DNA of 64,000 bases from an uncultured Acidobacteriota bacterium. Lineage in GTDB: Bacteria > Acidobacteriota > Thermoanaerobaculia > UBA5066 > Gp7-AA6. The stretch spans positions 9,533 to 73,532 of the forward strand of contig CAWAKL010000009.1 in assembly GCA_963782585.1 (NCBI GenBank), read 5' to 3'. The translations under genes were made by a program, and so were the position numbers. This document shows positions 5,243 to 53,191 of the stretch, in pieces. The notes under the pieces are model-generated. The model worked only from the letters and a program-made list of their open reading frames with translations, did no database searches and was not told where the DNA came from. The stretch's first letter is position 1. Each line of letters begins with the position of its first letter.

Positions 5243-5251
5243 CGAAGCGCC

Positions 5252-32793: not shown

Positions 32794-32872
32794 GGAACCT
32801 CCCGTTTGTTCGCGAAGCATACGCCGGACAGGGCCCTGTGGGAAACTCGCAGCGCCCGTGACCAAGCCGCGG

Positions 32873-35102: not shown

Positions 35103-37875
35103 ATGCCATCGACCAGTCTGACCCGAGCGATGCGAGCCCTCCTCGCTGCCCTCCTCTTCACGCCGATGGGGCTGCGGGCCGCCGAAACCGGGACGTTTCA
35201 GAAGTCCGTGGCTTCCATCATGGCGAGCCCGGAGAGCTCTGGTCCGAGACTTTCGCCTCCCCGCCTGGCCGCTCCTCGCCGCCACCTGGGCGACCGCCCG
35301 GATTCGCCGCGGACGGCCGGCTTCCCCGGCGGCTCCGAGTCCGCCGCGCCGGGAGCGCCCGCCGCTCCGCAAGCCCTGGGCGTCAACTACCTCGCCGCCA
35401 CGCTCGCCGACACGGACGCGTTTCCCCCGGACACCTCGGGCGCCGCGGGACCGACGCAGTTTCTCGTCGGCCTGAACGGCCGGATCCGGACCTTCGCGAA
35501 AGACACCGGCGTCGCCGACGGCGTGCTGAACGCGAGCATGGACCTTTTCTTCGACTCCGTGCGCAACGGCAATCCGACCGGCGCGCCGCGCGTTCGTTAC
35601 GACCGGCTCTCCTCGCGCTGGATGGTCACGATCGGCAACTTCAACGCCTCGTTCACCAACAACCGGATGCTGCTCGCCGTCTCCGACGCGGCGTCCGCGG
35701 GCGTCATCTCGAACACGACCGTCTGGACGTACTTCTTCTTCCAGCACAACCTCGTGTCGCCGGCTGGCGATACGGACCTCTTCTTCGACTCCCCCTCGCT
35801 CGGGGTCGACGCGAACGCCCTGACGATCGGAGGCAACCTCTTCAACGCGGCCGGCGGGTATCTGGGCACGAGCGTGCACGTCGTCCGCAAGAGCCGCGCC
35901 CTGTCGGGGCCGGGCGGCGACCTCGTGCCATCCGGCGACGTCGTCGCGTTCCGCAACCTGACGACGACACCCGCGGGAGAAGGACCGTACTCCCCCCAGG
36001 GAGTCGACGACCTCCACGACGCGCGCCGCCACCGAGTCGTGGATCGCGGGCGTCGAGAACGCGGGCTTCGGCGCGCTCAGCTTCCGCCGGATCACGTTCG
36101 CCTCGACCGGGGCGTGGCCTCCCTCGGGGATCTCCGCCAATCTGCCCCTGACGGTGCCCGCGACGTCGGTTCCGCTGACCGTGCCCCACCAGGGGAACGT
36201 CTTCGGGGTCGACGGCGAGCTCGACGCCATCGACGACCGCCTCTCCGCCGCGAGCCTGCGCGACGGACAGCTCTGGACCGCGCACAACATCTCGGTGGGC
36301 TCGGGAGGCGTCTCGCCCGGCGACCGGAACGGATCCCGCTGGTACGAGATCGACCTGTCCTCCGGCACTCCCGTGCTCACGCAGTCGGGAACGCTCTTCG
36401 ACACGGCGGTGACGAACCCTCGCTTCTACTGGATCCCCGCGATCGCGGCCTCGGGACAGGGCCACGCCGCGATCGGCACGAGCGCGTCCGGGGCGACCCA
36501 GCGGATCAACGCCGCGACCGCCGGGCGCCTCGCGACCGACGCGCCCGGCACGCTGGGGACCCCGACGCTCTACACGACGACCACGTTCGCCTACAACCCC
36601 GCGGGCGACCCGGGCCCCACGCGCCGCTGGGGCGACTACTCGTTCACGGCCGTCGATCCTTCCGACGACATGACGATGTGGACGATCCAGCAGTACTGCA
36701 ACGCGGCGGACTCCTATGGCGTCCGTGTGGTCGAGATCCTCGCGCCGCCGCCGGCGTCCTTCGGGACGGCCGCACCGAACACCGTGGTTTCGGGACAGCT
36801 TTCGGTCGACGTCGTCATCACCGGAACCTCCTCCGCGGGTTCCGGGTACTTCGATCCGGGAGCGGGCTTCCCCAACCGACTGGCGGCCTCGGTCTCGGGA
36901 GGAGTCACCGTCAACTCCGTGACCTACACGAGCCCGACGTCGGTCACTCTCGACCTCGACACGACCGCCGCGGCCGCCGGCCCCGTCACCGTGACGATCA
37001 CGAACCCCGACGGCCAGTCGGCGACGAGCGCCTCGGGATTTTTGACCATCACGGCCGGATCGGGGCCGGGCGTCAGCGCGATCGCTCCGACGTCGGGCAC
37101 CGCCGCCGGTGGAACGCTCGCGACTCTGACCGGCACAAACTTCGTCGCCGGCGCCTCCGTGACGATCGGCGGCGTGGCGGCGACGGGCGTCCTCGTGACC
37201 TCCTCGACCACCGCGGACCTCACGACGCCGGCTCTCGCCGCGGGCGAGCTCCACGACGTCACGTTGACGAACGCCGACACGCAGAGCGGGACGCTGCTCG
37301 ACGGCTGGTTCGCCGACTTCCTCGACGTCCCGCAAGAAGACATCTTTCACTCCCATGTCGAGAAGCTCATTCGAAACGGCGTGACCGTGGGCTGCGGCGG
37401 CGGAAACTACTGCCGCAACGACTCCGTCACGCGCGCCCAGATGGCGGTCTTCCTGCTGAAGTCCGACCTCGGGTCGGCGTACATCCCGCCGGCGTGCACG
37501 GGCACGGTGTTCCCGGACGTGCCCTGCACGGGCGGGCTGTTCGATCCGTGGATCGAGGACCTCGCCAACCGCGGAATCACGAGCGGCTGCGGAGGCGGCC
37601 TCTACTGCCCGAACGACCCGGTGACGCGGGCACAGATGTCGGTTTTTCTGCTCAAGACGCTCGAGGGATCGGCCTACACGCCGCCGGCCTGCACGGGGAC
37701 GGTGTTCGACGACGTGCCCTGCACGGGAGGGATCTTCGATCCCTGGATCGAGGAACTGGCCGACCGGGGAATCACCGCGGGCTGCAGCGTCGTGCCGCCG
37801 CTCTTCTGCCCCGGAGATTCGAACACGCGCGGCGAGATGGCGGTGTTTTTGGTGCTGACGTTCAGCCTCCCCTAG
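35103..37875 (+). CDS. Large secreted protein: unrecognised N-terminal domain, IPT/TIG-like domains, three C-terminal Cys-rich SLH-like modules; one apparent frameshift near 36015-36030
   Basis: Frame 35103.. is protein-like up to ...EGPYSPQGVDDLHDA. The 36154..37875 frame is open and protein-like from AATESWIAGVENAGFGALSFRRITF... IPT-like part: VSAIAPTSGTAAGGTLATLTGTNFVAGASVTIGG. Modules occupy 37309-37872. Confidence 0.75.
37309..37872 (+). other. Three tandem Cys-rich SLH-like modules (protein-level repeat)
   Basis: The pattern F.DVP....F..(W)IE.L...G(I/V)T.GCGGG.YCP...VTRAQM.VFLLK occurs three times, joined by linkers of the form G.AY.PP.CTG. Confidence 0.7.
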
Positions 37876-38003: not shown

Positions 38004-38648
38004 CTAGTACCCCTTGAGCAGCGTGCTCTCCGTCCGCTTGTAGACGCGGTCGGAGCCGTCCCGGCTCTTGATGACGAGCTGGCTGTTCTCGATCCGGAAG
38101 GGATAGGTCCCGGGAGGCTGGCCGAAGATCGCGACGGTGAGCTTGTCACCCTCGACCTTGTAGGTTCCGCGGAGAGTGACGGCCGGCATTCGGACGAAGA
38201 GCTTTCCGTCGGGCGTGAACTGACGGTACTGCGTCAGCAGCTCCATGAAGACGGAGCACCATTCCCCGACGAGAGGCGAACCCTTCCGCGGCGCCGGTGG
38301 GCCGATCCGTTCGGAGGAGCCCTGCTCGGCGCCGTCCTCGCCTTTCTCGGCGAATTTGTCGGGACCTTCGAACTCGACCTTGAGCGCGGACTCGCGCACC
38401 TCTCCGGTCGCTTCGTCGGTGTAGAAAGTCCGCAGCCATTCGCCTTCGACCTCGTAGGTCGTGTCGCCCATCGCCGCCGAGATCTGCGTGACCCGGCCGT
38501 CCGGATGAAACTCGAGGATGTTCCCGACGCCACCCTTGTTGCGCACGGCCGACTCCCACTGGCCGAGGATCGCCGCCGGCGGCGGCGCGGGCGCCGGAGC
38601 AGTCTGCACCAGCGCGGAGAGAACGATCGCGAGATGGAACGAGGTCAT
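38004..38648 (-). CDS. Secreted hypothetical protein (lipocalin-like size, no family recognised)
   Basis: 214 aa. Signal peptide MTSFHLAIVLSALVQTAPAPA, then balanced composition (ILGQWESAVRNKGGVGNILEFHPDGRVTQISAAMGDTTYEVEGEWLRTFY...). Confidence 0.7.
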   Translation of the reverse strand: MTSFHLAIVLSALVQTAPAPAPPPAAILGQWESAVRNKGGVGNILEFHPDGRVTQISAAMGDTTYEVEGEWLRTFYTDEATGEVRESALKVEFEGPDKFAEKGEDGAEQGSSERIGPPAPRKGSPLVGEWCSVFMELLTQYRQFTPDGKLFVRMPAVTLRGTYKVEGDKLTVAIFGQPPGTYPFRIENSQLVIKSRDGSDRVYKRTESTLLKGY

Positions 38649-38870: not shown

Positions 38871-40730
38871 ATGCAGCGAAGAACAATACGTGCGGCGATT
38901 CTCGGGATCGCCGCCGCAGCCACCGCCTTCACGGCGGCCGCGGCGACGGTCTCGAGCCCGTACCGGCCCACGTCCTCCCCGATCTCCGCGGCGAGGCTGG
39001 CGGCTCCCGGCCAGGAGGCCCTGGACCTGGACCGCTCGGCGCTCGCCGCTCTGCGCTCGGCCGAGGGCGAGATCCGCATCCCGGGGTTCCCCGTGGCGCC
39101 CGGAGCGCTCGAGACGCTCGCCGTGAAGCGCTTCGAGGTCGCGACCCCGGACGCGCGCGTCACCGTCTCCGGGCCGGACGGCGAGAAGTCGCTGCCCTTC
39201 CCGTCGATCGCCCACTTCTCCGGCACGATCGAGGGCGAGCCCGGCTCCTCGGTCTACCTCTCGGCCCAGCGCGAAGTTCTCTACGCGTACGTCCGCCGCT
39301 CGGGCGGAGCCACGGTCTACGTCGGTCCGGCGGCGTCGCGTAAGGCCGGAGACTACGTCGCGCGCAGCGACGACTCTCCCGCCAACGAGCTGCCCCTCGA
39401 GCCGTGGGCATGCGCCACTGAGGAGCTGCCGGCTGCGCTCACGGACATGGCGGAGCCCTCCTTCCCCGCGCCGCAGGCGCCCCTCGAGGGACTCCAGCAG
39501 GCGGCCGTGCGGGTCGACACCGACTACGAGATGTATCTGAAGCACGACAACGACGCCGAAGAGGTCGCCGCCTGGGTCGCGACTCTCTACGGCGCCATCA
39601 ACATCGTCTACGAGCGCGACCTCGACCTTCATCTCTCGCTGGCGGAAGTCCACGTCTGGACCGGATCCGGGGACCCTTACGTTTCGACGAACACGCGCAC
39701 GCAGCTCGACGAGGTCGGCGACTGGTGGCACACCAATCGGCCGATGGGCACCTATCCGCGCGCGATCGTGCACTATCTGTCCGGCAAGGGCCCATCGGGC
39801 GGCATCGCGTGGCTCTCGGTCCTCTGTCAGGGAGACTTCAACTCCGGCGGGCACTGGGGCGGCGCTTACGGCGTGACGCAGGTCAACGGCACCTATCCGC
39901 TGGGCAACTGGGACCAGTTCGCGACCGCCCACGAGACCGGCCACAACGCGGGATCGCACCACACGCACTGCTACGTGCCGGCGATCGACCATTGCTACAA
40001 CGGCGAAGGGGGCTGCTACTCGGGGACCGTCCAGAACCCCGGCGCGGGCAACGGCACGATCATGAGCTACTGCCACCTGCTCGGCTGGAGCTACGTCTCG
40101 TTCGAGTTCCACCAGCGCTGCATCGACGAGCAGCTCATGCCGGAGATCAACTCCGCTGCCTGTCTCACGGAGGCCTCGACCTTCCTCGACGTACCACCCT
40201 CGCACCAGTTTTACGAGTTCGTCGAGACGCTGGCCGCGAACGGCGTGACCGGCGGCTGCGCTCCCAACTACTACTGCCCGAACAACCCCGTCACGCGCGC
40301 GCAGATGGCCGTCTTTCTCCTGAAGGCGAAGTACGGAGCCGCGCACGTGCCGCCGGCCGCGACCGGGACGGTCTTCGGGGACGTGTCGGCCGGCGCCTTC
40401 GCCGCGGCCTGGATCGAGGAGCTCGCGAGTCTCGGCGTCACGAGCGGCTGCGGCGGCGGAAACTACTGCCCGAACCAGACCGTCACGCGGAAGCAGATGT
40501 CGACGTTTCTCCTAAAGACGAAGTTCGGCGCTGCCCACGTGCCTCCGGCGCCGGCCGGCATCTTCGCGGACGTCTCCATGCAGGATCCATTCGCGAGCTG
40601 GATCGAGGAGCTCTACGCCGACGAGATCACCGGAGGCTGCCAGCCGAACCCGCTCCGCTACTGCCCGAACGACCCGAACACGCGGGGGCAGATGGCGGTG
40701 TTTCTGGTCAAGGCGTTCGATCTCCAGTAA
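38871..40730 (+). CDS. Secreted reprolysin/ADAM-like (M12B-type) zinc metalloprotease with three C-terminal Cys-rich SLH-like modules
   Basis: 619 aa. ATG is preceded by GGAAGGAG. Signal peptide present. Zinc motif FATAHETGHNAGSHHTH followed by GTIMSYC. Modules occupy 40182-40727. Confidence 0.85.
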   Translation: MQRRTIRAAILGIAAAATAFTAAAATVSSPYRPTSSPISAARLAAPGQEALDLDRSALAALRSAEGEIRIPGFPVAPGALETLAVKRFEVATPDARVTVSGPDGEKSLPFPSIAHFSGTIEGEPGSSVYLSAQREVLYAYVRRSGGATVYVGPAASRKAGDYVARSDDSPANELPLEPWACATEELPAALTDMAEPSFPAPQAPLEGLQQAAVRVDTDYEMYLKHDNDAEEVAAWVATLYGAINIVYERDLDLHLSLAEVHVWTGSGDPYVSTNTRTQLDEVGDWWHTNRPMGTYPRAIVHYLSGKGPSGGIAWLSVLCQGDFNSGGHWGGAYGVTQVNGTYPLGNWDQFATAHETGHNAGSHHTHCYVPAIDHCYNGEGGCYSGTVQNPGAGNGTIMSYCHLLGWSYVSFEFHQRCIDEQLMPEINSAACLTEASTFLDVPPSHQFYEFVETLAANGVTGGCAPNYYCPNNPVTRAQMAVFLLKAKYGAAHVPPAATGTVFGDVSAGAFAAAWIEELASLGVTSGCGGGNYCPNQTVTRKQMSTFLLKTKFGAAHVPPAPAGIFADVSMQDPFASWIEELYADEITGGCQPNPLRYCPNDPNTRGQMAVFLVKAFDLQ

Positions 40731-40907: not shown

Positions 40908-40959
40908 CTTGCGGCTCCACCCGGGCCGCGTAGAGAATCCCCGTCCAACCGGAGGACAC

Positions 40960-42807
40960 ATGAGCTCGAGGTTCGCGGCGACCATCGTGGTCGCATGGCT
41001 GGCGGGGTGCGCGGTCGCCGGAGCCGGGGTGCCCAACCTGGTGAGCCCCGTCCGATCATCCATGTTGAAGCGCGCCACTCCCGGGGAAGAATCCGTCGCT
41101 CTCGATCGCGGAAGCCTCGCGTCGCTGCGCCGCCAGGGAAACGAACCCTTCCGCATGTCGGGTTTTCCGACGGGCCCCGGCGTGCGCTCCGATCTCGTCC
41201 TCCGCCGGTTCGACATCGTTTCGCCGGGCGCGCGCATCCGCGTGACCGGAGCAAACGGCGACACCTTCCGGCCGATGCCCGAGGTCGTGCACTTCGAAGG
41301 AACCGTCGCGGGCGAACCCGACTCGCGGGTCTACGTCGCCGTCCTGCCGGACGGTCTCGTGTCCTGGCTTCGCTCCTCCGCGGGAGCGACCTACGTGGGT
41401 CCCGACGAGTCGCGCCGGGGCTACGTGGTGCGCGATGCGTCGCTCGCGACGCGGCCGTCGGACTGGAGCTGTTTCGCCGACGAGCTCGCTCCGGCGCCGC
41501 AGCCCTCCGTGGTTTCAAAGTCGGGTGCGGGGCCCGCCACACCGCAGATCACGGGCTTCCAGAAGGCGAGTCTCATCCTCGAGACCGACCAGGAGCTGCT
41601 CGCCGACTTCTCAGGCGACGCCGACGCGATGTCCGCGTACCTGCTGACGCTCTCGGCCCAGTTCAACCTGATCTACGAGCGCGACCTCTCGTTCCACTTC
41701 ACCGTCACGGAGATCCACGTCTGGACGACGACCGATCCCTGGGACGGGCCGACCACCAACGAGCAACTCCTGCAGATCGGCGACTGGTACCACGCCAATC
41801 GGCCGCTCGACACGTTTCCGCGAGCCGCGGCGTTTCTCATGTCGGGCCGCCCGGTGGCGGGTGGCGTCGCCTATCTGCCGGCCGTCTGCCTCGACGACTT
41901 CCCGGTCGACGGCGGCCACTGGGGCGGTTCGTACGGCGTGACCCAGCTCTACACGGACTGGCCCGCGCAGCAGTGGGACCTCTTCTCGCTGCTCCACGAG
42001 GTCGGGCACATCTGCGGCAGCGCGCACACCCATTGCTACGTCCCGCCCATCGACATGTGCTGGTCCGGCGAGCCCGGCTGCTACAGCGGGCCGGTCTCCG
42101 TGCCGCCCGGTGGAGGCACGATCATGAGCTACTGCTATCTGCAGCCCGGCGGAGACGCGAACGTCAACCTCGTCTTCCATCCGCGGTGCATCAACGAGCA
42201 GCTGCTGCCCTACATCCAGGCGGCGACGTGCACGACCGCGGTCGCAACCTTCCCCGACGTGCCGGTCTCGAACCCGTTCTTCCACTACGTCCAGACGATC
42301 TTCCAGCTCGGCATCACCAGCGGCTGCGCCGGCGGCAACTACTGCCCCGCAAGTCCCGTCACGCGCGCGCAGATGGCGGTGTTTCTGCTGAAGGCGAAGG
42401 AAGGCGCGGCCTACGTTCCGCCCGCGTGCCCCGGCGGGTTCAACGACGTCCCCTGCGAGAACAACCCGTTCGCCCCGTGGATCTACGAGCTGGCGGCGCG
42501 CGGGATCACGAGCGGCTGCGGCAGCGGCAACTACTGTCCGGACAATCCCGTCAATCGCCGGCAGATGGCGCCGTTTCTCCTGAAGACCCTCTATGGGTCT
42601 TCGCACGTCCCGACGACGTGCACGGGCGTCTTCTCCGACGTGCCCTGCGCCGCCGGCGTCGGGTTCGACGATTTCATCGAGGAGCTCTACTCGCTCGGGA
42701 TCACCGGAGGCTGCGCCACGGCTCCGCTGCGCTACTGTCCCGAGAACCCGAACACGCGCGCGCAGATGGCGGTGTTCCTGGTCAAGACGTTTGGCCTAGT
42801 CTGGTAG
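40960..42807 (+). CDS. Paralogous secreted reprolysin-like zinc metalloprotease with three C-terminal Cys-rich SLH-like modules
   Basis: ATG at 40960 follows GGAGGA. MSSRFAATIVVAWLAGCAVAGAG..., zinc motif FSLLHEVGHICGSAHTH followed by GTIMSYC. Collinear with 38871..40730. Modules occupy 42250-42804. Confidence 0.85.
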   Translation: MSSRFAATIVVAWLAGCAVAGAGVPNLVSPVRSSMLKRATPGEESVALDRGSLASLRRQGNEPFRMSGFPTGPGVRSDLVLRRFDIVSPGARIRVTGANGDTFRPMPEVVHFEGTVAGEPDSRVYVAVLPDGLVSWLRSSAGATYVGPDESRRGYVVRDASLATRPSDWSCFADELAPAPQPSVVSKSGAGPATPQITGFQKASLILETDQELLADFSGDADAMSAYLLTLSAQFNLIYERDLSFHFTVTEIHVWTTTDPWDGPTTNEQLLQIGDWYHANRPLDTFPRAAAFLMSGRPVAGGVAYLPAVCLDDFPVDGGHWGGSYGVTQLYTDWPAQQWDLFSLLHEVGHICGSAHTHCYVPPIDMCWSGEPGCYSGPVSVPPGGGTIMSYCYLQPGGDANVNLVFHPRCINEQLLPYIQAATCTTAVATFPDVPVSNPFFHYVQTIFQLGITSGCAGGNYCPASPVTRAQMAVFLLKAKEGAAYVPPACPGGFNDVPCENNPFAPWIYELAARGITSGCGSGNYCPDNPVNRRQMAPFLLKTLYGSSHVPTTCTGVFSDVPCAAGVGFDDFIEELYSLGITGGCATAPLRYCPENPNTRAQMAVFLVKTFGLVW

Positions 42808-42817
42808 GGGGAGCGGG

Positions 42818-44302
42818 CTACTTCAGGTAGCCGAGGGCGCGGAGCTCCTTGACCACTTCGCTCTCCTCGGTGAGGCCGTAGTGGCCCATGACCTGCTTCA
42901 TCCAGGTCTCGTAGGACGGCGCGGCGCCGCCGGCGGCCACCTGCCCGGCCTGGCCGCCGAGGTGCTTCATCAGGACGTGGTACAGCGTCCGCACCGAGTC
43001 GCGGCCGCTGTCTTCCATGGCGAGGTTCTTCTTCTCTCCGGGATCGCTCGCGAGGTCGAAGAGCATCCGGTCCTGGGGTGTGACGAGGATGAACTTGCGA
43101 TCGCCCGAGAGAACGCTGCCGATCCAGAACGTCCAGGCGCCCTCGGAGAAGGCCGGGGGCGGCGAGACTTTGCCCGAAGCGGCCGGACTCGGCTTCCCGG
43201 CGAGCGCCCAGGCGAGGCTGCGGCCGCTCCAGCCCGCCGGCCGCTCCACGCCGACCATGTCCAGAAGCGTCGGCGCGATGTCGAGGTTCTGAACGAGCTC
43301 GGCCACGGCCCTTCCGGCCACCGGAGTCTTCGGCGCCGCGATCAGAAGCGGCGTGCGGATGACGCCGTCGTAGTACGTCTGGCCGTGGCTGATGACGCCG
43401 TGCTCGTCGAACTCCTCGCCGTGGTCCGCGTTGAAGACGAGGATCGTCTTCTCCGAAAGCCCCGTCTTCTGCAGGAGATCGAAGAGCGGGGCGAGGTCCG
43501 CGTCGGCCCAGTGGAGCCCCTCGTCGTAGAGGGCCATCGCGTTCGCCATGTCCTCGGCCGACGGACGGAGCTTTCCCTCACGCACGCCGTGGATCGCGTC
43601 GAGCGTGAAGTCGAAGTCGCTCGCGTAGCGGCCGTAGAGGTACTTCCGCTCGTGGGCGTGCAGGAACGGATAGTGCGTGTCGGTGGTGTAGAGGAACGCG
43701 AAGAACTTCCGGTCGCGGTTCTCTTCGATGAAGCGGAGGACCTCGGGCATCTTCTCCTTCAGGGTCTCCTGGCGGTGCCGGAAGAGATCCCACCCCTGGT
43801 CGAAACCGAGAGGCTTCGAGATCCAGCTCTGCACGAACGCGGCCGTCCGGTAGCCCGCGCCGCGCAGTGTTTCGGAGATCAGCGCGTCGTTTTCGGACGG
43901 GCCGGGCGCGATGCCGAGGATCTTCGCCCGGTCCTTCTCGTCGCGCTGCTCCTGGACGGCGAGCTCGGCGACGTAGCGGGAGGTCAGCATCGAGGCGTAG
44001 GAAGGCAGCGTGTAGGGCGCCTGCGCGATGCAGCGCGAGAATCGCACGCCGCGCTTCGCCACGCCGTCGAGCAGCGGCGTCGTATTCCGCGAGTAGCCTT
44101 CGAAGGAGCAATGGTCGGCGCGCACGGAGTCGAACGAGATCCAGATCACGTTCATGCCGCGCCAGGCGTCGGCGGGATCCCGGCGGCAGGCCATCGACAT
44201 CGCCGCGACGGGAAGCACGAGCAGAAACGCGGCGGCGAGACGCGCGAAGCGGCGGATCATCGCGCGGAGCATAGCGGGTAAACTGCCGCGAATGAGGCGC
44301 AC
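42818..44302 (-). CDS. Alkaline-phosphatase-superfamily (sulfatase-like) hydrolase or transferase, membrane-anchored or secreted
   Basis: 494 aa. VIWISFDSVRADHCSF and APYTLPSYASMLTS (Thr at the nucleophile position), then FNADHGEEF. The start could be one of the internal Met codons (44272 or 44260). Confidence 0.8.
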   Translation of the reverse strand: MRLIRGSLPAMLRAMIRRFARLAAAFLLVLPVAAMSMACRRDPADAWRGMNVIWISFDSVRADHCSFEGYSRNTTPLLDGVAKRGVRFSRCIAQAPYTLPSYASMLTSRYVAELAVQEQRDEKDRAKILGIAPGPSENDALISETLRGAGYRTAAFVQSWISKPLGFDQGWDLFRHRQETLKEKMPEVLRFIEENRDRKFFAFLYTTDTHYPFLHAHERKYLYGRYASDFDFTLDAIHGVREGKLRPSAEDMANAMALYDEGLHWADADLAPLFDLLQKTGLSEKTILVFNADHGEEFDEHGVISHGQTYYDGVIRTPLLIAAPKTPVAGRAVAELVQNLDIAPTLLDMVGVERPAGWSGRSLAWALAGKPSPAASGKVSPPPAFSEGAWTFWIGSVLSGDRKFILVTPQDRMLFDLASDPGEKKNLAMEDSGRDSVRTLYHVLMKHLGGQAGQVAAGGAAPSYETWMKQVMGHYGLTEESEVVKELRALGYLK

Positions 44303-47300
44303 CGTCGTTCTCGCCGGCTACTACGGCTTCGGGAACACGGGCGACGAAGCGATCCTCACCTCGATTCTGGCGGGCCTGCGGCGGCGGGTGCCGGGCACCG
44401 TCTTCGTCGTCGTCTCGGGCGATCCCGAAGCGACGCGGCGGCAGCACGGCGTGGAGGCGATCGACTGGCGGGATCTTCCGGCGCTCTCCGAGAGCGTCAC
44501 GAAGAGCGACGCCGTTCTTGTCGGAGGCGGCGGCCTCTTCCAGGACTACTGGGGCCTCGACGTCAAAACGCTCCTGACCCCGCGGCACGGAGAAATCGCC
44601 TTCTACGCCGGGCCCGTCGTCCTCGCGGCCCTCGCGCGCAAACCGGCGCTGCTCTACGGGCTCGGCTTCGGTCCCCTGTCCTCGCCGGAGGCCCGCCGGT
44701 ACGCCCGGGCCGTCGCGGACGCCGCCGTGCACGTTTCGGTCCGCGACGAGGCCTCGCGGGAGCTCCTCCTCGCGACGGGCGTGCCCGAAGCGCGCGTCCA
44801 CCTGAGTGCGGATCCGGCCTTCGCCCTCGAGACGGCCGAGAACGTCCCGACACCCGCGGATCTCTGCCGGTCCGCCGGAGTCGAGCCCCGCTCGCCGATT
44901 CTGGGCGTGGCGCTGCGCCCCTGGTCGATCGGTGTGGAGCAGGAGGCATGGGAGAAAGAAATCGTCTCGGCGCTCGACGGTTTTCTCGAGCGCACCAACG
45001 GCACGCTTCTCTTTTCGCCGTTCGAGAAGAGTCCCTGGACGGAGAAAGACGACTTCGAGCAGGCCTCGCGGCTGGCCGCGGCGCTCTCCCGCCCCGGACG
45101 CGCCGCCGTCGCGGGCTTCCGGCAGGACCGTCCGCCCCGCGAGACGGCGGCTCTTCTCGCGGGCTGCGATCTCGTTCTCGGGATGCGGCTCCACTCGCTC
45201 GTTTTCGCAGCCGTGGGAGGCGTTCCCGCGGTGGGCCTCGCCTACGACCCGAAGGTCACCGCTCTGCTCGCGCGCCTGGGCGGGCCGGCCGCGCTTCCCC
45301 TCGCGAAGGCGACGTCGCGAGGCGTTCTCGACGCGCTGATCCACTCGCTCGCGCAACGGACCGCGATCTCCGCGCGCCTCCGAACGGCCGCGGCGGAGCA
45401 GAAGGCCCTCGCGGAAGACGACCTCGACCGCGCCGCCCGCCTCATCGCGGAGCCTCCAGCCGCGCCGGAGGTCAGCCGCGCGGTCCTGAGCCTCTTCGAC
45501 GACGCGCTCGAGGCCAACCGCGGCCGAGCGAGCGAGATCGAGGCGAGCCTCGCCGCCGCGAAGGGCGGACTCGAGGCGCTCGAACGCGCGCACGCTCGCG
45601 AGAAAGCCCTGCTCGAGGAGCGCCTGGGAGAAACGCGACAGGAGCTGGCCCGGCTTCAGGGCTCCCGGCTCTGGCGCCTCGCCAACCTCTACGGGCGCCT
45701 CCGACGGTCGGCCGCCGGATTCGCGCGGCGGGTTCTGGGCCGTCCCGCCTCCGACTGGGCGGGCCCGGATGCCGGAGCCGACGCGGCGCGTCGCGCGACG
45801 CCGATGCGCGACGAGAGCCGATACGACGTCGTGTGGCTGGGGCGCGGTTCTGAAGCCTCGCTCCCCGAGCGCTCGCGGGCCATCCTCGACGCTTACCGGA
45901 AGGCCGGGGATCGCGTCTTTCCGATACCTCCGCGAAAATGCCGGCGGCCTCGACGCGCTTCGGCGAACGGAGACGCTCGCGGCGACGGCGGTCTTCGTCG
46001 AGGACCCGTCCGGACGTCCGCACGCGAAGCGCCTGCGCCAGTCCCGCGGCTGGCTCCTCGTGGACGCGACCGGCGAGGCCGACCACTCGGCCGAGCCGCC
46101 GGACGTCGTCCTCGATCCCGCGGCCTCGCCCGAGGACGTCCTCCACGCGATCCCGGGCTTCTTCCCGAAGGTCTCGATCGTCGTCGTGACCCGCGACAAC
46201 CGGGACTTGAACCGACTGTGTCTCGAGAGCCTGCGCGCGCGGACCGAGTGGCCCAACTTCGAGGTTCTCGTGGTCGACAACGGCTCGACCGACGGAACCG
46301 TGGAGCTCCTCCGCGAGATCGCGCGGAGCTGGCCGCGGCTCTCCGTGATCGAAAACGCGGAGAACCGCGGGTTCGCGGCGGCCGTCAACCAGGGTTTCGC
46401 CGCGGCCACTCCGGACGCGGTCTTCTTCGTCACGCTCAACAACGACACGGTCGTGACACGGGGCTGGCTCACGACGCTTCTCGCGCACCTGCGCGCCGAT
46501 CCGAAGCTCGGGCTCGTCGGTCCGGTCACGAACGCGATCTCGAACGAGGCCCAGGTGGACATCGGCTACGGCGACCTCGCGGAGCTGCCGGCGCGCGCGG
46601 CGCAGTGGGCAAGCGCCCACGACGGCGAGAGCTTCGCGATCCCGATGCTCGCGTTCTTCTGCGCGGCGCTCCGCCGGCAGACCTGGGAGGCGGTCGGTCC
46701 GCTCGACGAGCGCTTCGGCGTCGGCATGTTCGAGGACGACGACTGGTGCCGCCGCGCCCGGGCCCAGGGCTGGGAGATCCGGTGCGCGCGCGATGCCTTC
46801 GTGCATCACTGGCAGAAAGCGACGTTCCGCAAGCTCGGAGAGAAGACGTACCGCGCGCTCTACGAGGAGAACCGGCGCAAGTACGAGGAGAAGTGGGGCG
46901 GGGATGCGACGACCGCCGCGGCCGCGTCGCAGGGCGCCCCGCGCGCCGATCTCGGAAAGTACCGCAGCCAGCTCGCCACGCTGCTCGAGTCGCGAGGCGG
47001 AAGCGCCGACGGGAAAACCGTCGTTTTCCTGCCGTCGATCGGCTGGGGCATCCATCTCTTCCAGCGGCCGCACCACCTCGCACGGGCGTTCGCGCGGGCC
47101 GGGTGGCTCTCCATCTTCGACTGCTCGAACGCTCAGGACCGGGTCGACGGCTTCAAGGAGATCGAGCCCAATCTCTTCCTCTATCGCGGTCCCGCCGGAG
47201 TTCTCGAGCGCCTCCCGGGGCCGATCCTCTGGAGCTTCCCGTACAACTTTCACCAGACCCGGGCGTTCCCCTCCGACGCGCGAGTCGTCTACGACTGGAT

Positions 47301-48063
47301 CGACGACCTCTCGGTCTTCCCCTACGAGCGGGCCCTGCTCGACGAGAACCACGCACGGGCGCTTTCCGACGCGACGGTCGTCGCCGCCGTGGCCCGCCGG
47401 CTGCACGAGGAGGCCCGGGCGCAGCGGCCGGACGCGTTGTATCTGCCCAACGGCGTCGAGTTCGAGCGTTTCTCCGCCGCCGCGGCGCCGGCCTCGACCG
47501 ATCGCGACGTCTCCCCGCTGCTCTCCGCCGGCCGGCCGATCGCCGGCTACTACGGGGCGCTCGCCGAGTGGTTCGACTACGAGCTCGTCGACGAAACCGC
47601 CCGCCTCCGCCCGGACTGGAGCTTTCTACTCATCGGGCCGATGTACGACCAGAGCCTCCAGGGACGCCCGATGCTGAAGCGCGAGAACGTCCGCTGGATC
47701 GGCCCGCGCGACTACCATCTGCTGCCCGGCTACCTCGCCCTCTTCGATGTCGCGACGATCCCGTTCCGGATCAACCCGATCACGACCGCGACTTCGCCTC
47801 TGAAGCTCTACGAGTACTTCGCCGGCGGGAAGCCCGTCGTCACCACCCCGATGCCCGAGTGCGCCGCCTTCCCCGAGGTGACGATCGCGCGAAACGCGCG
47901 GGAGCTCGCCGACGCTCTCGATCCGGCGAGGGCGAAGGGGCGCGACCCGGCCTTCCGCGAGCGGCTCCGCTCCCTCGGCCGCGAGAACTCCTGGGACGCT
48001 CGCGTGAAGGCGGTGCTCACGCAGCTCGAGCTCGCATCCGAGACGTCCGCGCCCGCTCGCTGA
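44292..48063 (+). CDS. Multidomain glycan-synthesis protein: CsaB-like polysaccharide pyruvyltransferase - coiled coil - GT2 - GT1/TuaH-like glycosyltransferase; one apparent frameshift near 45915-45925
   Basis: ATG at 44292. MRRTVVLAGYYGFGNTGDEAILTSIL...VGGGGLFQD...LYGLGFGPL...VSVRDEASRELL is CsaB-like. After ...AYRKAGDRVF the protein continues in the 45769..48063 frame. GT2 part: VSIVVVTRDN...VVDNGSTDGT...NRGFAAAVNQG...FEDDDWC. GT1-like part: IAGYYGAL...SPLKLYEYFAGGKPVVTTP. Confidence 0.75.
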
Positions 48064-49468
48064 GCGCCTGCGCCAGCCACGCGGCGTCGGCGATCAGGAC
48101 CAGATCGCAGAGCGCGTGGAACACGAAGAGGTGACGGCCGAGATCGTCGAGCGCATCCGCGAAGGCGCACACGCCGAACTCGAGGCCCGCGGTGAGGAGC
48201 GCGACGAGTAGGGCGAAGAGAAACATCCGGCCGCGTGGCGAAGCTTTTCGCCAGGCCAGGGCCACGGCCAGCAGGTTTCCGCCGAAGAAGGCGAGCAGCC
48301 AGCCGAGAGCGTGGGCTTCGCCCTTCGCCCGGAGATCGCTCCAGAGGGCGAAGCGCTTCGACCGCGTGCGCGGAGGGACGCCGGTCGCCTTCTCGAAGTT
48401 CCCGAGGTACTTCGGCCGCAGCCGGAACACCGCCGGCGCGGCCCGTCGGATCCGGTCGACGAAACGCCCGGGGTGCCGGAGGTAGAAGGCCACGAGCTTC
48501 GCGTAGCCGAAGCGGTCCAGGAAACGCGCCTGAAAGTCGGGGTCCCGCATCGGCGCGCCCGGCATGTACGCGTGCATGCCGACGTACCGGGCCAGGTCCG
48601 CGTCGATGCCGAGCTCGTTCATGTCGCGACGCGGATCGGGCGAGTACTGCAGAAGGTCGTGAAAGACCGTGTGGAAGAGGCCCACGTGCCGGATGCCGGC
48701 CGGAGGTATCTGCCGGTAGTACCAGAGCGCGAGCACGCAGAGACCGGCCGCGAGCCCGACCGCCGCCGCCGGCCGACGCCACGCGAACCCCGCCCGGCCG
48801 GAAAGGAAGACTCCGAGGCCCGCGAGGAGCGGCGCGTGGACGAATTCCTGCGGCTTCGAGCACACGAAGAGCGCGGCCGCCGCGAAGTACGCCACGAGAA
48901 GCCACCCGCGCAGCCGGCCTTCGCGCACTCCCGCCGCCGCGAACGCGAACGTGAGCAGGACGAAGAGAAGGGACGAGGTCTGGGCGAAGAAGGAGTTGAA
49001 CGGGGCGGCATAACCAACGTCCGTGAAGACGAGCACGAGCAGGGCGGCGCCGAGAACCTGCGCGACCGGAGACAGATCCCGGCAGGCCCTCACGAAGAGG
49101 CCGATCGCCAGAAGCAGGAGCAGGATGTGGATCGTCGCCAGGATCCGGATGTCGAACATCCGGCCCGGAAAGAGACCGAGACTTGCATGGCGCGCGGCGA
49201 ACGCCAGCGGCGTCTCCGACGTGAGGTAGCCGCTGACATACCAGCCCGGAGCGACGATCGAGAGCTTCGGGACGATGTGCCCGTAATACTTCTCGTCGAA
49301 CTTCTCGGTCGGATACCGAAACCCGGCGTATCCCATGACCCGTTCGCCATCGCCCTCGTCGGCGAGCCCGACGATCGGGGGCACGAGCAACTGCAGCGAC
49401 AGAAGCGCCGCCGCGGCGGCGACCGCCGCGAGCGTGAGGAAGCGGTTCTGCCGGTCTCGGTCGGTCAC
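48017..49468 (-). CDS. Polytopic membrane protein of unknown function (envelope-glycan cluster)
   Basis: 483 aa with a GTG start and at least 9 hydrophobic helices (ILATIHILLLLLAIGLFV, LLFVLLTFAFAAAGV, ...). No family recognised by eye. Confidence 0.7.
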   Translation of the reverse strand: MTDRDRQNRFLTLAAVAAAAALLSLQLLVPPIVGLADEGDGERVMGYAGFRYPTEKFDEKYYGHIVPKLSIVAPGWYVSGYLTSETPLAFAARHASLGLFPGRMFDIRILATIHILLLLLAIGLFVRACRDLSPVAQVLGAALLVLVFTDVGYAAPFNSFFAQTSSLLFVLLTFAFAAAGVREGRLRGWLLVAYFAAAALFVCSKPQEFVHAPLLAGLGVFLSGRAGFAWRRPAAAVGLAAGLCVLALWYYRQIPPAGIRHVGLFHTVFHDLLQYSPDPRRDMNELGIDADLARYVGMHAYMPGAPMRDPDFQARFLDRFGYAKLVAFYLRHPGRFVDRIRRAAPAVFRLRPKYLGNFEKATGVPPRTRSKRFALWSDLRAKGEAHALGWLLAFFGGNLLAVALAWRKASPRGRMFLFALLVALLTAGLEFGVCAFADALDDLGRHLFVFHALCDLVLIADAAWLAQALSERARTSRMRARAA

Positions 49469-49469
49469 G

Positions 49470-51536
49470 GTGTATTCTCCATCGGTGCCGGGGCCCGAGC
49501 GTCGAAGCGCCCGACGCGGGCTTCGTATCCTGCCGATCGCGGTTCTCGCCGCCGAAAACCTCGTCGTCTACTGGCGCCACTACTTCGGCGGCTACGGCTT
49601 CCCCTGGGATTTCGTCGGCTCCTACTATGCGGCGGCCGCCTACTGGACCGAAGCCGTCTCGCGGGGCGGGCTGCCCGCGTGGATGCCCTTCCAGTCGATG
49701 GGCTACCCCTTTCTCCTGAACCTCCAGACCGGGTTCTTCTACCCGCCGATGTGGATCTTCCCGCTCCTGCGTATCCCTTACACGCTGCCCGCGGCCGTCG
49801 TCTTCCAGTGCCTGCACGTCTTCGCCGGAGCCCTCGGCATGTACGCTCTCGCGCGGGGCGTCCTGCGCTCGCGGCGCGTGGCGCTTCTGGCAGCGTTCTG
49901 TTTCCAGCTCTTCGGCGGCTTCTACTCGAACGCCGAGCACGTCGACATCGTGCGGTCGTTCGCGTTCACTCCCTGGCTCCTCTGGGCGTGCCTCCCGCCC
50001 CGCGCCTCGAAGGGCCCGCGGCTTCCCGGCCGGATCCTGCTCGCGCCGATCCTGGTCTTCCTGATGGCGGTGGGAGGCTACCCCGGCAATCTCTTATCCG
50101 CGCTCTTTCTGGTGGGCGTCTTCGCCGTCTTCGTTCTGGTGCAGCGAGGCTTCGCGCGCGGCGCGCTCGCCTGGACCGGAGCGCTGGCCGGCTCGGCCGT
50201 TCTGGGGCTCGGGATGGCCGCGATCCATCTCGGCCCGGCCTGGACATATCGGGACGAGATCCTTCGCTACCACAACGCCTCGCGCATCTTCCGCGCCTCG
50301 CTCGGTGTCGTGCACCTGCCGGCCCTCGTCCTTGAAAACCACCGCATGCCGATCGAAAAGAGCATGACCTCGACCTTCGTGGGCTTCGCGGTCCTCGCGG
50401 GGGTCTGTTTTTTGACGTGGAAGAGCTGGAGGCGGCTCTGGCCCTACGCCGCGCTCGCCGCCGTGTCCGCCGCCATGGTCGCCGGCAGCAGGCTTCCGAT
50501 TTATCCGCTCATCGGAAGTCTCGTGCCGCCCCTCGGTTACTCGCGCTTTCCAGCGAGCGACTACCGCGGCTTTTTCGCCATGCTGCTGATCCTGCTCGCG
50601 GCGGCCGGCTGGCGAGACCTGCGCCGGCGGCGGCTTTCGACCGTCGGTTTCCTCGTGCGCTCGTTGCCGATCATGCTGTTTGCCGCCTGGAGCATCGGCC
50701 GTCTCTACCCGGGCTTCTCCTACTGGCCGGATCCCGCCAGGGTGGAGATCTGCGTCGTCGCGACGCTCGCCGGGCTGGCGGTGTGGCGGACGCGCGGGCC
50801 GATCGTCGGGGTTCTCGCGATGCTCGCCGCCGTGTCGCTCGACGCGTCGCGCGTCCTTCCCAAGATCGAGGGCTGGGCCGAGGCGGACCAGCTCGCGACG
50901 TGCCGCGTTTTCGCGCCCACGCCCGCTCGGATGTACGACGCGGGCCTCGTCGTCGATCCAAAGCTCTTCGAGACGCGCGAGGGGCCGCGGCCTCCGCGCA
51001 ACGACGGCGACGGACCCTATCGCGCGAGCGGGTATCTCCAGGGGGACTACGTCGTCGCCGACTTCGGAGCCGCGGCCGGGCTCCGAGCCCGAGACGCGTT
51101 GTATCGGGACAAGCGCTATCTCGCCTTCATGTGCCGCGGGTGGACGCCGATCGTGCTCGAGCCGCAGGAGATGGCCGGGGGCCAGGTGGACGTTCCGAGT
51201 CTGCCGTCGCAGGCCCTCTCGGCGGCGCCCGATCCCCGCGTCGTCCAGGAGTCCGCCGGAATCGACTGGGCCCGATATAGCGTGGACTCCGACCAGCCGC
51301 TCCTTCTCGTCGAGAACGAAGTTTTCTTTCCCGGCTGGACCTCCTCCCGGGCCGGGCCCGCCATCCGGGTCAACACGTACTTCCGCGGCTGGATGCTGCC
51401 GGCCGGGCGTTACGAGCTCGAGACGAGATTCCGCATGGCCGGCCTGCCACGCTTCGCGGCCGTGAGCGTTACGGCGTGGATCGTGTGGCTCGTGTGGCTC
51501 GCCGCAGCGATACGCCGCCGGCGTCGCGCAGGATGA
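49470..51536 (+). CDS. YfhO-like polytopic membrane glycosyltransferase-family protein (start uncertain, GTG 49470 or 49485)
   Basis: The protein-like part starts at ...RRGLRILPIAVLAAENLVVYWRHYFGGYGFPWDFVGSYYAAAAYWTEAVSRGGLPAWMPFQSMGYPFLLNLQTGFFYPP. It has many TM helices, a large C-terminal extracytoplasmic domain and a terminal TM. Confidence 0.7.
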   Translation: MYSPSVPGPERRSARRGLRILPIAVLAAENLVVYWRHYFGGYGFPWDFVGSYYAAAAYWTEAVSRGGLPAWMPFQSMGYPFLLNLQTGFFYPPMWIFPLLRIPYTLPAAVVFQCLHVFAGALGMYALARGVLRSRRVALLAAFCFQLFGGFYSNAEHVDIVRSFAFTPWLLWACLPPRASKGPRLPGRILLAPILVFLMAVGGYPGNLLSALFLVGVFAVFVLVQRGFARGALAWTGALAGSAVLGLGMAAIHLGPAWTYRDEILRYHNASRIFRASLGVVHLPALVLENHRMPIEKSMTSTFVGFAVLAGVCFLTWKSWRRLWPYAALAAVSAAMVAGSRLPIYPLIGSLVPPLGYSRFPASDYRGFFAMLLILLAAAGWRDLRRRRLSTVGFLVRSLPIMLFAAWSIGRLYPGFSYWPDPARVEICVVATLAGLAVWRTRGPIVGVLAMLAAVSLDASRVLPKIEGWAEADQLATCRVFAPTPARMYDAGLVVDPKLFETREGPRPPRNDGDGPYRASGYLQGDYVVADFGAAAGLRARDALYRDKRYLAFMCRGWTPIVLEPQEMAGGQVDVPSLPSQALSAAPDPRVVQESAGIDWARYSVDSDQPLLLVENEVFFPGWTSSRAGPAIRVNTYFRGWMLPAGRYELETRFRMAGLPRFAAVSVTAWIVWLVWLAAAIRRRRRAG

Positions 51537-53130
51537 TGGCGTCGGCGCCAAGTGCGCCGTCGCGCACGAACCCGGCCGGCCCCTCGATACGGACGATGAG
51601 TGCTGCGGTTTCTGCGTCGTCGCCGGCACGGCAGCGAATGCGCGCCGTCTGATCCGCGCCTGCCGGCCGCAACCAGACCCGCCGCCACTCGAGCGAGGTC
51701 ACGTCGCCCTCCTCGACGACGCACCGAGCGATGCCGCCGCCCCCGACCTCCAGCGGAAATCGCGCGACTGGAAGCGGCGGTTCGTCCTTCGCGACGACGA
51801 ACGCGGTCAGGCGCGACTCGGCGAACAGCAGCGCCGCCGCCACGGCCACCGTCACGAGCCCGAAGCGCAGGCGCGATGTTCGCGACGCGGCCGCGAGCCC
51901 CGAGAGACCCAGCGCGATCGCGAGAAGCTCGAGAGCCGTCGCGGGCAGCATCAGGCGGCCCAGGGGCGAGGCGATGGATTGCAGCGCGAACTTCAGGAGA
52001 ATGCACGCGGCGAGCACCAGGACAGCGGCGTCGCGGCGCCGAAGCGCCCGGAGCAGGCTCGCGAGAAAGAGGCCCTGAATCAGAGCGAGCTCCCAGCGGA
52101 GGCGCGGGAACCATCGCGTGTAGAACCCGGCCCCGCGAGGACGCAGCGCCTCGGGGAGCGCCTGGGCCGAGCCGATGCTCCAGAAAAGACTGTCGGCGTC
52201 GCTCTCCACGGCGAGCCGGCCGGAGACCGATGCCGCGCGCAGAAGGTGAAAGCCGGGCCGGCGCTTCCACTCTTCGATCGCAAGGCGCGTCGCGGCCGCG
52301 CGGGCGACGGTCCGGTTCTCGAGCAACTCCGGCTCGACGGCCGCGATGTGGGCCCGTGGATCGACCCAGCCGGCCTGCGGCGCGCCGGGAACGACGCTCC
52401 CCAGAAGCGCCAGGCCGCCGTGCTCGGTCGTGATCGCGAAGCGGCCGCTGGCGGTGTGGCGTTGCCACGCGAACGCCAGGAGCGGCAGAGCCGCGAAGAC
52501 GGCGAGCCGGGCGGCGCGTCGGTGCCGCGCGCCGTCCTGACGGAGAAGGCCGGCGGCGGCGAGGGCCGCCGGGATCAGAACGACGAGCAGCTCCTGGCGG
52601 AAGACCGCGGCCAGCGCGAGCAGGAGACCCGCCGCGAGGGGCCGGGCAGCGCTCGCCGGCGACCGCACGACGCGGACGGCCAGCGCTCCGAGTGCGACCG
52701 CCGGAAGAAGCGCCCAGTTTTCCTGGGCAACCACGCCGGAAAAGAAGACCTGTCCCGGCCAGAGGGCGAGAAGAAGCCCCGACACGAAGCGCCACCCGAA
52801 GCTCAGGAACGGACGCCAGAGGAAAAACGGCAGGAGCGGCATCAGCCCCGTGACGGCGGCGGTCGCATGGCGCGCGGCCGTCTCGGGATCGGGGAAAACG
52901 GCGAACACCAGCGAAAGCGCCATCCCAACCCCGGGGTTGAACTGGATCCAGTGCCAGCTCTCGGCCGTCCAGCCGCGATCCTGCATCAGAAGGCCGAAGT
53001 CGATGAGCGCCCGAAAGTCCGAGAATGCCAGCGTCGGAAACCGGAGCGCGAACGCAATTCGAACTCCGACCCCGATCACGAGGAGCGCGGCCCCGGCCAG
53101 GATCTCGCGCCGGGACGCCTCTCGTGTCAC
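51469..53130 (-). CDS. GT-C fold (GT39/ArnT/PMT_2-like) membrane glycosyltransferase
   Basis: 553 aa. MTREASRREILAGAALLVIGVGVRIAFALRFPTLAFSDFRALIDFG... with about 10 TM helices plus a C-terminal soluble domain. Confidence 0.7.
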   Translation of the reverse strand: MTREASRREILAGAALLVIGVGVRIAFALRFPTLAFSDFRALIDFGLLMQDRGWTAESWHWIQFNPGVGMALSLVFAVFPDPETAARHATAAVTGLMPLLPFFLWRPFLSFGWRFVSGLLLALWPGQVFFSGVVAQENWALLPAVALGALAVRVVRSPASAARPLAAGLLLALAAVFRQELLVVLIPAALAAAGLLRQDGARHRRAARLAVFAALPLLAFAWQRHTASGRFAITTEHGGLALLGSVVPGAPQAGWVDPRAHIAAVEPELLENRTVARAAATRLAIEEWKRRPGFHLLRAASVSGRLAVESDADSLFWSIGSAQALPEALRPRGAGFYTRWFPRLRWELALIQGLFLASLLRALRRRDAAVLVLAACILLKFALQSIASPLGRLMLPATALELLAIALGLSGLAAASRTSRLRFGLVTVAVAAALLFAESRLTAFVVAKDEPPLPVARFPLEVGGGGIARCVVEEGDVTSLEWRRVWLRPAGADQTARIRCRAGDDAETAALIVRIEGPAGFVRDGALGADAIILRDAGGVSLRRATRATRSTP

Positions 53131-53191
53131 GAGCGCATTGTGGGCGGGCGAGGTTTCGGCAGCAAGTCGGGCATTCGATACCCTAAGGGTA

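Follow-up and report, generated by a model that had tools for sequence, protein, structure and literature searches.

The stretch of DNA analysed here, which we call the window, comprises 64,000 nucleotides (nt) of contig CAWAKL010000009.1 from an uncultured bacterium of the Acidobacteriota. It contains a gene, referred to below as the fusion gene, that encodes a 1,256-residue soluble enzyme once one extra base at position 45933 is skipped and the reading frames on either side are joined. The domains of this protein are, in order, a CsaB-family pyruvyltransferase, a long coiled coil, a vestigial half of a GT-B domain, a GT2 glycosyltransferase (GT) module of the GT-A fold and a GT-B module that resembles TuaH. 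Three genes for SLH proteins lie within 9 kilobases (kb) of the fusion gene (Table 1), and the last of these ends 1.48 kb before the fusion gene starts, as the original prediction had reckoned (1.5 kb). Most work on SLH domains and CsaB has concerned Firmicutes, Thermus/Deinococcus and cyanobacteria.

Table 1 The fusion gene, its domains and the adjoining genes (positions are those of the window; aa, amino acids; E, expectation value)
Feature	Position	Strand	Basis or remark
TIG domain and three C-terminal SLH repeats, secreted	35103..37875	+	TIG E=1.3e-11, SLH E=4.6e-11; split by one-base insertion
214-aa conserved protein between SLH genes	38004..38648	-	208-217 aa in L001-L004, L085 and L087; weak TIGR03066 match only
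Reprolysin-like (M12B) metalloprotease with three C-terminal SLH repeats, secreted	38871..40730	+	Reprolysin_5 E=7.3e-19, SLH E=1.9e-16
Second reprolysin-like metalloprotease with three C-terminal SLH repeats	40909..42807	+	Reprolysin_5 E=6.8e-16, SLH E=5.1e-13
Alkaline-phosphatase-superfamily ('sulfatase') enzyme, exported	42818..44302	-	PF00884 E=6.3e-43
Fusion gene, 5' part	44292..45932	+	Frame 0, ATG at 44292, 547 codons
CsaB-family pyruvyltransferase domain	aa 5-333, ~44304-45290	+	PF04230, TIGR03609
Coiled-coil helices	aa 342-482, ~45315-45737	+	AlphaFold model
Small alpha/beta domain	Start in 5' part, rest in 3' part	+	Cut by frameshift; vestigial TuaH-like GT-B N-terminal half
Extra base (+1 frameshift) splitting the fusion gene	45933..45933	+	Comparison with L001 and homologues
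Fusion gene, 3' part	45934..48063	+	Frame 1, stop codon 48061-48063
GT2 (GT-A) module	~46165-46836	+	PF00535 E=6.4e-28, PF13641 E=2.1e-17
Linker helix	Between GT2 and TuaH-like GT-B modules	+	P0029 model
TuaH-like GT-B module	~47002-48048	+	PF13692 (Glyco_trans_1_4) E=6.7e-9; TuaH model 89 bits
WsfD-family polytopic membrane hexosyltransferase	48017..49468	-	NF051875 glycan_WsfD 354.3 bits vs 80, positions 2-448/452
Polytopic membrane protein	~49488-51536	+	Hydrophobic translation
Polytopic membrane protein	51469-53130	-	Hydrophobic translation
Polytopic membrane protein, GT22/GT-C-like	~53192-54487	+	PF03901 E=6.1e-6

Two mutually overlapping open reading frames (ORFs) on the + strand span the fusion gene, one at 44154-48134 in frame 0 and the other at 45769-48063 in frame 1. 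Frame 0 is protein-like up to ~45932 and then turns into Arg-rich nonsense, though it stays open to its end, and frame 1 is protein-like from ~45934 to its stop; long spurious ORFs are common in the window because its G + C content is ~69%. The N-terminus read from the ATG, MRRTVVLAGYYGF, agrees with the N-termini of homologues. All motifs from which the original prediction had recognised the domains are present, with GGGGLFQD, LYGLGFGPL and VSVRDEASRELL in frame 0 downstream of the ATG and VVDNGSTDGT and FEDDDWC in frame 1.

In an AlphaFold model of the frame-0 part (pLDDT 90) residues 1-330 adopt a GT-B-like double Rossmann fold, followed by helices at residues 342-354, 356-386, 396-456 (61 residues) and 459-482 and then by the first strands of the alpha/beta domain. 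We also modelled a 956-residue relative that has no CsaB head (P0029, pLDDT 82); its long helices are as in the frame-0 model and lead into a confident alpha/beta domain of ~110 residues, the GT-A module, a linker helix and the GT-B module. The nearest solved folds identified by Foldseek were GT-A enzymes (GT2/GT27-like) and GT4-like GT-B enzymes; these generic GT-A and GT-B matches confirm the folds but cannot tell CsaB apart from other enzymes that are GT-B-like. When the PDB was searched by sequence, both with the protein and with a 51-sequence profile, no solved pyruvyltransferase came up, only low-complexity coiled-coil matches and, for the GT-B part, PimB.

Profile scores and models thus bear out the coiled coil, the GT2 module and the TuaH-like module of the original prediction. 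Over the GT2 module PF00535 (Glycos_transf_2) scored 98.2 bits against a cut-off of 23.3, and its NNDT and FEDDD (DxD-type) motifs are invariant in 50 relatives. Among NCBIfam models, TuaH of Bacillus subtilis (NF047676) scores highest on the C-terminal GT-B module, and TuaG matches the GT2 module weakly; however, the scores lie far under the equivalog cut-offs (89 bits vs 550 for TuaH, and a cut-off of 400 for TuaG), indicating a distant family resemblance only. The relative P0016 has an extra TuaH-like GT-B module that is itself 32% identical to the C-terminal one; it is to the N-terminal half of this extra module that the small middle domain aligns, and the middle domain is therefore the vestige of a third GT module.

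The joined-frame protein retrieved more than 60 proteins that are each encoded by a single ORF, have lengths of 1237-1340 residues and align over 99-100% of the query with 52-91% identity. Those with a named source are from metagenome-assembled genomes (MAGs) of Thermoanaerobaculia or Acidobacteriota, and public databases label these proteins automatically as 'polysaccharide pyruvyl transferase (CsaB)'. Variants include a longer form with an extra methyltransferase (~1500-1630 residues), longer forms with an additional full GT-B module (~1527-1600 and 2027-2053 residues) and a shorter form with CsaB and GT-B only (770-900 residues). Judged from these reading frames, the multidomain single-ORF architecture is the normal state of the gene in this Thermoanaerobaculia lineage. 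The single polypeptide of more than 1,250 residues that the original prediction envisaged thus stands for the relatives, although in the window itself an extra base interrupts it. Coil regions differ in length from that of the window by +7 (P0005), +35 (P0033, P0050, P0018 and P0020), +49 (P0026) and +46 (P0030) residues; such indels, mostly heptad multiples, are to be expected of a genuine coiled coil whose length evolves.

The head of the protein matches PF04230 (PS_pyruv_trans) with 140.1 bits (gathering threshold 25.3; E=1.7e-40) over profile positions 1-280 of 280, corresponding to residues 15-320 from the ATG. On TIGR03609 (CsaB), where the curated cut-off is 213.1, it reaches 212.4 bits (model positions 2-293 of 301). 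Relatives score 215.8, 203.9, 208.9, 213.4, 210.5, 215.2 and 214.9 bits on the same model, so the family, at 204-216 bits, straddles the curated cut-off. WcaK, the second-best model, reaches 53 bits only. In an alignment with seven single-domain CsaB-like proteins of other, SLH-bearing phyla, with Bacillota, Negativicutes, Sericytochromatia and Chloroflexota among them (from Orenia, Negativicoccus, Desulfothermobacter, a Sporomusaceae MAG, Sericytochromatia, Chthonomonadaceae and Anaerolineae), to which the head is 32-42% identical, Y10-Y11-G12-F13, R151-D152, R209, R299-L300-H301 and Y318-D319-P320-K321 are invariant; Y11, F13, R151, R299-x-H301 and K321 are likewise invariant across 51 closer relatives.

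These positions can be compared with the mutagenesis of Paenibacillus alvei CsaB, in which R148, H308 and K328 proved critical for binding of phosphoenolpyruvate (PEP), R306 docked on PEP, and Y14 and F16 affected the acceptor (PMC10435577). The head carries the same set, the R-x-H, the Lys at +20 and the Y-G-F, as judged by motif and spacing, the P. alvei sequence lying outside our alignment. By these sequence measures the head is CsaB-type and not of the WcaK or exopolysaccharide (EPS) type. This is what the original prediction had read from the N-terminal ~370 residues, and the head does not group with EPS-type pyruvyltransferases only. From CsaB family membership, its predicted activity is the transfer of pyruvate from PEP to positions 4 and 6 of β-D-N-acetylmannosamine (ManNAc) in a lipid-linked precursor of a wall polymer.

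Compared with the CsaB proteins of Bacillus anthracis, P. alvei and Thermus thermophilus, the likeness consists of a full-model match over the N-terminal 333 residues, retention of the PEP-binding and acceptor-site residues and the adjoining SLH-protein genes. There are also clear differences. Known CsaBs are single-domain proteins of ~370-400 residues, whereas here CsaB heads a much larger protein that also has a coiled coil and two GT modules, and no csaA/Wzx, tagA or mnaA gene was seen near the fusion gene. After GGGGLFQD there is an insert of ~10 residues, YWGLDVKTLLTPRHG (residues 86-100, ~44547-44591), that is shared by the acidobacterial proteins and the one Anaerolineae protein and is missing from the other six aligned single-domain CsaBs (Bacillota, Sericytochromatia and Chthonomonadaceae). 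Finally, the host differs: the window also encodes TolC-like, HlyD, MacB-type and TonB-dependent-receptor proteins, and the organism therefore has an outer membrane.

The three neighbours called 'SLH-like' by the original prediction carry true Pfam SLH repeats, with PF00395 scores of 43.0, 60.2 and 49.2 bits against a cut-off of 20.8, so the relation to SLH stands and the hedge in the name can be dropped. Each has a signal peptide; in the second protease the likely start Met is at ~40957 and is followed by a lipobox-like LAGC. The repeats have the form F-x-D-V-...-W-I-E-E-L-...-G-I-T-x-G-C-G-G-G-N-Y-C-P-...-T-R-A-Q-M-A-V-F-L. In SpaA, SLH-Trp13, Gly29 (of GIIxG) and Arg43 (of TRAE) contact 4,6-pyruvyl-ManNAc, and TRAQ is a functional motif (PMC6081394). 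In the window the Trp lies in P/A/S-W-I-E-E/D-L in repeats 2 and usually also in repeats 3, the Gly in G-[IV]-T-x-G in nearly all repeats, and the TRAE position reads T-R-[AGK]-[QE], with NRRQ in one repeat; the first protease, for example, has WIEEL, GVTSGC and TRAQ, TRKQ and TRGQ motifs. From these motifs, the ligand-contacting Trp13, Gly29 and Arg43 appear to be largely kept.

Like the SLH trimers of SpaA and Sap, those of the neighbours consist of three tandem repeats that keep the three contact residues, with TRAQ, TRGE and TRKQ as TRAE variants. By contrast, the neighbours' repeats are C-terminal, and their cargo is reprolysin-like proteases and a TIG protein rather than an S-layer lattice protein. 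Unusually for SLH, a conserved Cys pair flanks the loop after Gly29, giving G-C-x3-5-Y-C-P in place of the classical G-x-x-x-F-x-P.

To place the fusion gene among its neighbours we compared gene order in seven relatives (L001-L004 and L085-L087; 53-91% identity). Their order is a formamidase gene (-), the TIG-SLH gene (+), a gene for a ~210-residue protein (-), one or two reprolysin-SLH genes (+) and, last, the fusion gene (+). SLH genes upstream of the fusion gene are kept in all seven, down to 53% identity; the reprolysin-SLH gene is a tandem duplicate in the window and in L085 (1492-5329) and single in L001-L004. Between the SLH genes and the fusion gene stand a two-component system in five of the seven and the sulfatase-like gene (-) in all except L086. 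A gene for an S-adenosylmethionine (SAM)-dependent methyltransferase precedes the fusion gene as a separate, divergent gene in two (L003, 8912-9922; L085, 8889-9935) and is fused into the big protein in one (L086, 10001-14674).

Of the 16 closest loci, 14 carry a strict DNA pattern for TRAQMAVF upstream and on the same strand, where by a rough reckoning ~1e-5 matches per locus would be expected by chance. The pattern also occurs near more distant, differently organised CsaB genes (L031, L033, L039, L040 and L046). On this evidence of gene order, the link between the CsaB fusion and SLH genes is conserved synteny and no coincidence of the window. The placement of the enzyme beside the SLH genes, which the original prediction had taken as its strongest functional link, thus recurs in the relatives. 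Conserved synteny supports the pairing of a ligand-making enzyme with ligand-binding proteins; that a pyruvylated glycan is the SLH ligand here is a step that we infer. Regarding the suggestion that 35-54 kb forms one system, ~33-48 kb is conserved as a block, whereas the membrane-protein genes at 48-54.5 kb vary.

How might such an enzyme work? We give an even chance to a reading in which the fusion protein would be a polymerase, ruler and pyruvate cap in one chain, making the ligand of the adjoining SLH trimers, with the frame break being an assembly indel. Beyond domain identity and synteny, we infer each step as follows. The two C-terminal GT modules would build a two-linkage glycan on a polyprenyl carrier on the cytoplasmic side of the inner membrane, and the pyruvyltransferase at the far end of the coil would place a ketal pyruvate on the non-reducing end of those chains long enough to reach it. 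The glycan would then be exported and possibly decorated with hexose by the WsfD-like neighbour, and the SLH trimers of the adjoining metalloproteases and TIG protein would bind the pyruvate-bearing glycan, leading to their retention on the cell envelope.

This reading is proposed because it brings together a WbbB-like format, termination by pyruvate and terminal pyruvate as an SLH epitope. In WbbB of Klebsiella O12 and ORF6 of O7 the coil is a molecular ruler, and the terminator acts only on sufficiently long chains (PMC11231755). These single-protein O-antigen polymerases likewise begin with an enzyme that modifies the chain, continue as an extended coiled coil and end in two GT modules (PMC11231755); the fusion protein is likened to them by order of parts. 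The terminator chemistry would be ketal pyruvate in the fusion protein as opposed to β-Kdo or methyl-phosphate in theirs, and no linked wzm/wzt with a carbohydrate-binding module was seen in the scanned ORFs of the window or within 10 kb in the seven relatives. The fused or adjoining SAM-methyltransferase of relatives recalls the methyltransferase terminators of WbdD-type systems.

A second parallel is WbbY and WbbZ of K. pneumoniae O1b, a dual-GT polymerase and a PEP-dependent pyruvyltransferase that caps the non-reducing end, encoded at a locus unlinked to transporter genes (PMC10629545). WbbZ shortens the products of WbbY in a PEP-dependent manner, showing that pyruvate can terminate polymerisation in vitro; candidates for pyruvate-based chain-length control exist but are without biochemical validation, according to Kelly et al. 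2023 (PMC10629545). Unlike the fusion protein, WbbY and WbbZ are two separate, divergently transcribed proteins with no ruler, and their pyruvate diversifies the antigen and does not serve SLH binding. As to the epitope, pyruvate in B. anthracis is on the terminal repeat and SpaA binds via the terminal monosaccharide (PMC6081394, PMC8942822).

A WbbB-type polymerase-ruler-terminator appears to fit the architecture better than plain CsaB with helper domains, and the heptad-step length differences make chain-length ruler a candidate role for the coil. More tentatively, and as a possible rather than a probable outcome, a single glycan-polymerising polypeptide, its heptad-evolving coil and a pyruvate cap that docks the Cys-bridged SLH trimers of secreted metalloproteases may together constitute an acidobacterial form of SLH/pyruvyl-glycan anchoring.

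Several observations weigh against the polymerase-ruler-cap reading. The larger ORFs of the window yielded no gene for an ABC-2 exporter (Wzm/Wzt), Wzx/Wzy, WecA/TagO, TagA or MnaA/ManNAc synthesis, in an incomplete search that took some loci in a single candidate frame and gave no match for several ORFs, and none was found in the 10-kb flanks of the seven relatives. Because exporter, initiating transferase and ManNAc genes were not found nearby, the pathway as seen is incomplete; an exporter could be encoded elsewhere in the genome. On TIGR03609 the head falls 0.7 bits short of the curated cut-off, and the coil difference in P0030 is no heptad multiple. Synteny within one lineage could partly reflect vertical inheritance beside the ATP synthase operon. 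Further, P. alvei pyruvylates every repeat, showing that CsaB enzymes are not necessarily terminators.

The last point leads to an alternative in which the fusion protein is a repeat-unit synthase. Here the GT modules would make a lipid-linked disaccharide and CsaB would pyruvylate every repeat, as in the secondary cell wall polymer of P. alvei, with polymerisation and export taking place elsewhere and the coil serving only in oligomerisation; the product would still be an SLH ligand. P. alvei CsaB does act on a lipid-linked ManNAc-N-acetylglucosamine disaccharide (PMC10435577), no ABC transporter was seen in the locus, and several downstream GT-C-like membrane proteins could act after flipping. 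However, a modifying enzyme at the far end of a heptad-varying coil, with GTs opposite, is the documented terminator format, and coil differences of 35-49 residues are hard to explain by oligomerisation alone. We consider this alternative rather unlikely, though it is the best-surviving of those weighed against the polymerase-ruler-cap reading.

The frame break bears on whether the enzyme is made at all. At the junction the window reads ccg (45930-32), the extra c, and gaa aat (EN), after PIPP, whereas the 91% identical relative L001 has ccg gag agt and homologues read through ...HRVFPIPPESAGGLD..., PIPPE(S/N)AGGLD, without a gap. A frameshift had been suspected at ~45915-45925; a single-base break is indeed real in the given sequence, and lies at ~45933, about 8-20 nt from there. 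By resolving frames through translation and comparison with orthologues, we located at least two further one-base insertions. One is in the TIG-SLH gene, in gcgcgccgcc at ~36021-36030, where frame 0 gives residues 1-310 of the 926-residue L001 orthologue and frame 1 the rest, both with 89% identity. The other (gcc g tgc, ~16862, - strand) is in a gene for a secreted glucose/sorbosone-dehydrogenase with PKD (GSDH-PKD, 14769-~17000), in which ELVWTAA and CVTGSALVHV occupy two frames while the 83%-identical orthologue in L100 has EVVWTAPCVTGAGLVHV in one; the signal peptide, MKRTLLFALLVAV, is in another frame.

Within 64 kb, three genes each carry an insertion of the same type, and conservation is equal on either side of the breaks (89-91%; for the fusion protein, ~91% identity to P0001 before the break and also over the whole length); both observations argue for assembly indels. 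Frame errors seem common in related long-read-style 'contig_N' MAG assemblies: in L086, one of these, the ATP synthase gamma gene (97 + 195 residues; 19548-20425) and the formamidase gene (4366-5381) are split, and L100 has an internal out-of-frame stretch in its GSDH gene (2752-5100). The break in the fusion gene is, on this comparative evidence, most likely an assembly indel, and the gene is probably intact in the organism. True inactivation of the locus, whereby real insertions in the fusion and TIG-SLH genes would have abolished ligand synthesis and one SLH client together, would account for two breaks that are both in the given sequence and fall in functionally linked genes 10 kb apart. 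Yet it leaves aside the like frameshift in the unrelated GSDH-PKD gene, confirmed against an intact orthologue, the undiminished conservation after each break and the frame errors that 'contig_N' relatives have even in ATP synthase genes; we regard it as unlikely.

Two other loci bear on frame integrity. A frameshift suspected in a patatin-like gene (3320-5242) from a partial Pfam match was rejected, as the ORF reads through both patatin motifs. At 28232-30817 (-), ORFs for a Ser/Thr kinase (29681-30817) and a PD40 beta-propeller (28232-29455) are in the same frame with a stop between them, and a paralogue at 56176-58875 joins kinase and PD40 in one 899-residue protein; the stop may reflect one more sequence error, a nonsense mutation or a real division into two genes.

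It is quite improbable that the glycan is unrelated to SLH anchoring, being a pyruvylated exopolysaccharide, capsule or O-antigen beside SLH genes through inherited gene order: PF04230 enzymes do pyruvylate EPS and O-antigens too, the block adjoins the housekeeping ATP synthase operon in relatives and the TIGR03609 score is marginally under its cut-off, but the CsaB model is ahead of WcaK by ~160 bits, the closest non-acidobacterial relatives are from classical SLH phyla (as part of a set retrieved by CsaB-motif patterns, with possible bias), SLH-type modules adjoin the distant, differently organised CsaB genes named above, and the adjacency of SLH and fusion genes survives insertions (two-component system, methyltransferase), duplications of the SLH-protease gene and domain gain or loss in the fusion.

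A literature search on CsaB, pyruvyltransferases or SLH with Acidobacteria found no paper mentioning the phylum, and no description of a CsaB fusion or a multidomain pyruvyltransferase came up in a search for them. In the locus the CsaB-SLH pair is a conserved unit of uncultured soil and sediment Acidobacteriota that bear an outer membrane, with the ligand enzyme merged with GTs and a coil. Should the ruler-terminator reading be correct, the fusion protein would offer a compact, testable system in which pyruvate is placed solely at the chain end as the epitope read by SLH trimers, a means of tuning glycan length and a natural case of pyruvate-based chain-length control. The adjoining reprolysin-like proteases would then be retained on the envelope, which bears on protein degradation by abundant uncultured bacteria. 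Should it be wrong, a multi-domain enzyme family that is widespread but uncharacterised would still have gained a clean annotation.

Other adjoining genes may act on the same glycan. The sulfatase-like gene is divergent from the fusion gene, the two start codons being ~20 nt apart. Its product has T-L-P-S-Y at the active site instead of C/S-x-P-x-R and weakly matches LtaS and phosphoethanolamine transferases. Rather than a sulfatase, it may be a hydrolase or phosphotransferase that uses Thr as nucleophile and has the glycan as its substrate. Elsewhere in the window, at 18651-20768 (-), a second sulfatase-family enzyme is fused to a long TPR array and adjoins a TonB-dependent receptor (20827-23901). 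On the other side, the WsfD-family gene is convergent with the fusion gene and shares 47 nt with its 3' end; WsfD owes its name to a glycan biosynthesis cluster, and the L001 and L087 orthologues match PF27133 (YfdI_N). The three membrane-protein genes that follow (49488-54487) are present in L001, partly present in L085 and L087 and absent from L002-L004.

Just upstream of the cluster, 30862-32865 (-) encodes a secreted metalloprotease with PKD that gives weak matrixin and reprolysin matches and no SLH match. A 310-residue ORF near the start of the window (2098-3030, -) ends in a Peptidase_S74 'chaperone of endosialidase' domain (E=4.5e-11), a module that cleaves itself and is typical of spike-like and tail-fibre proteins.

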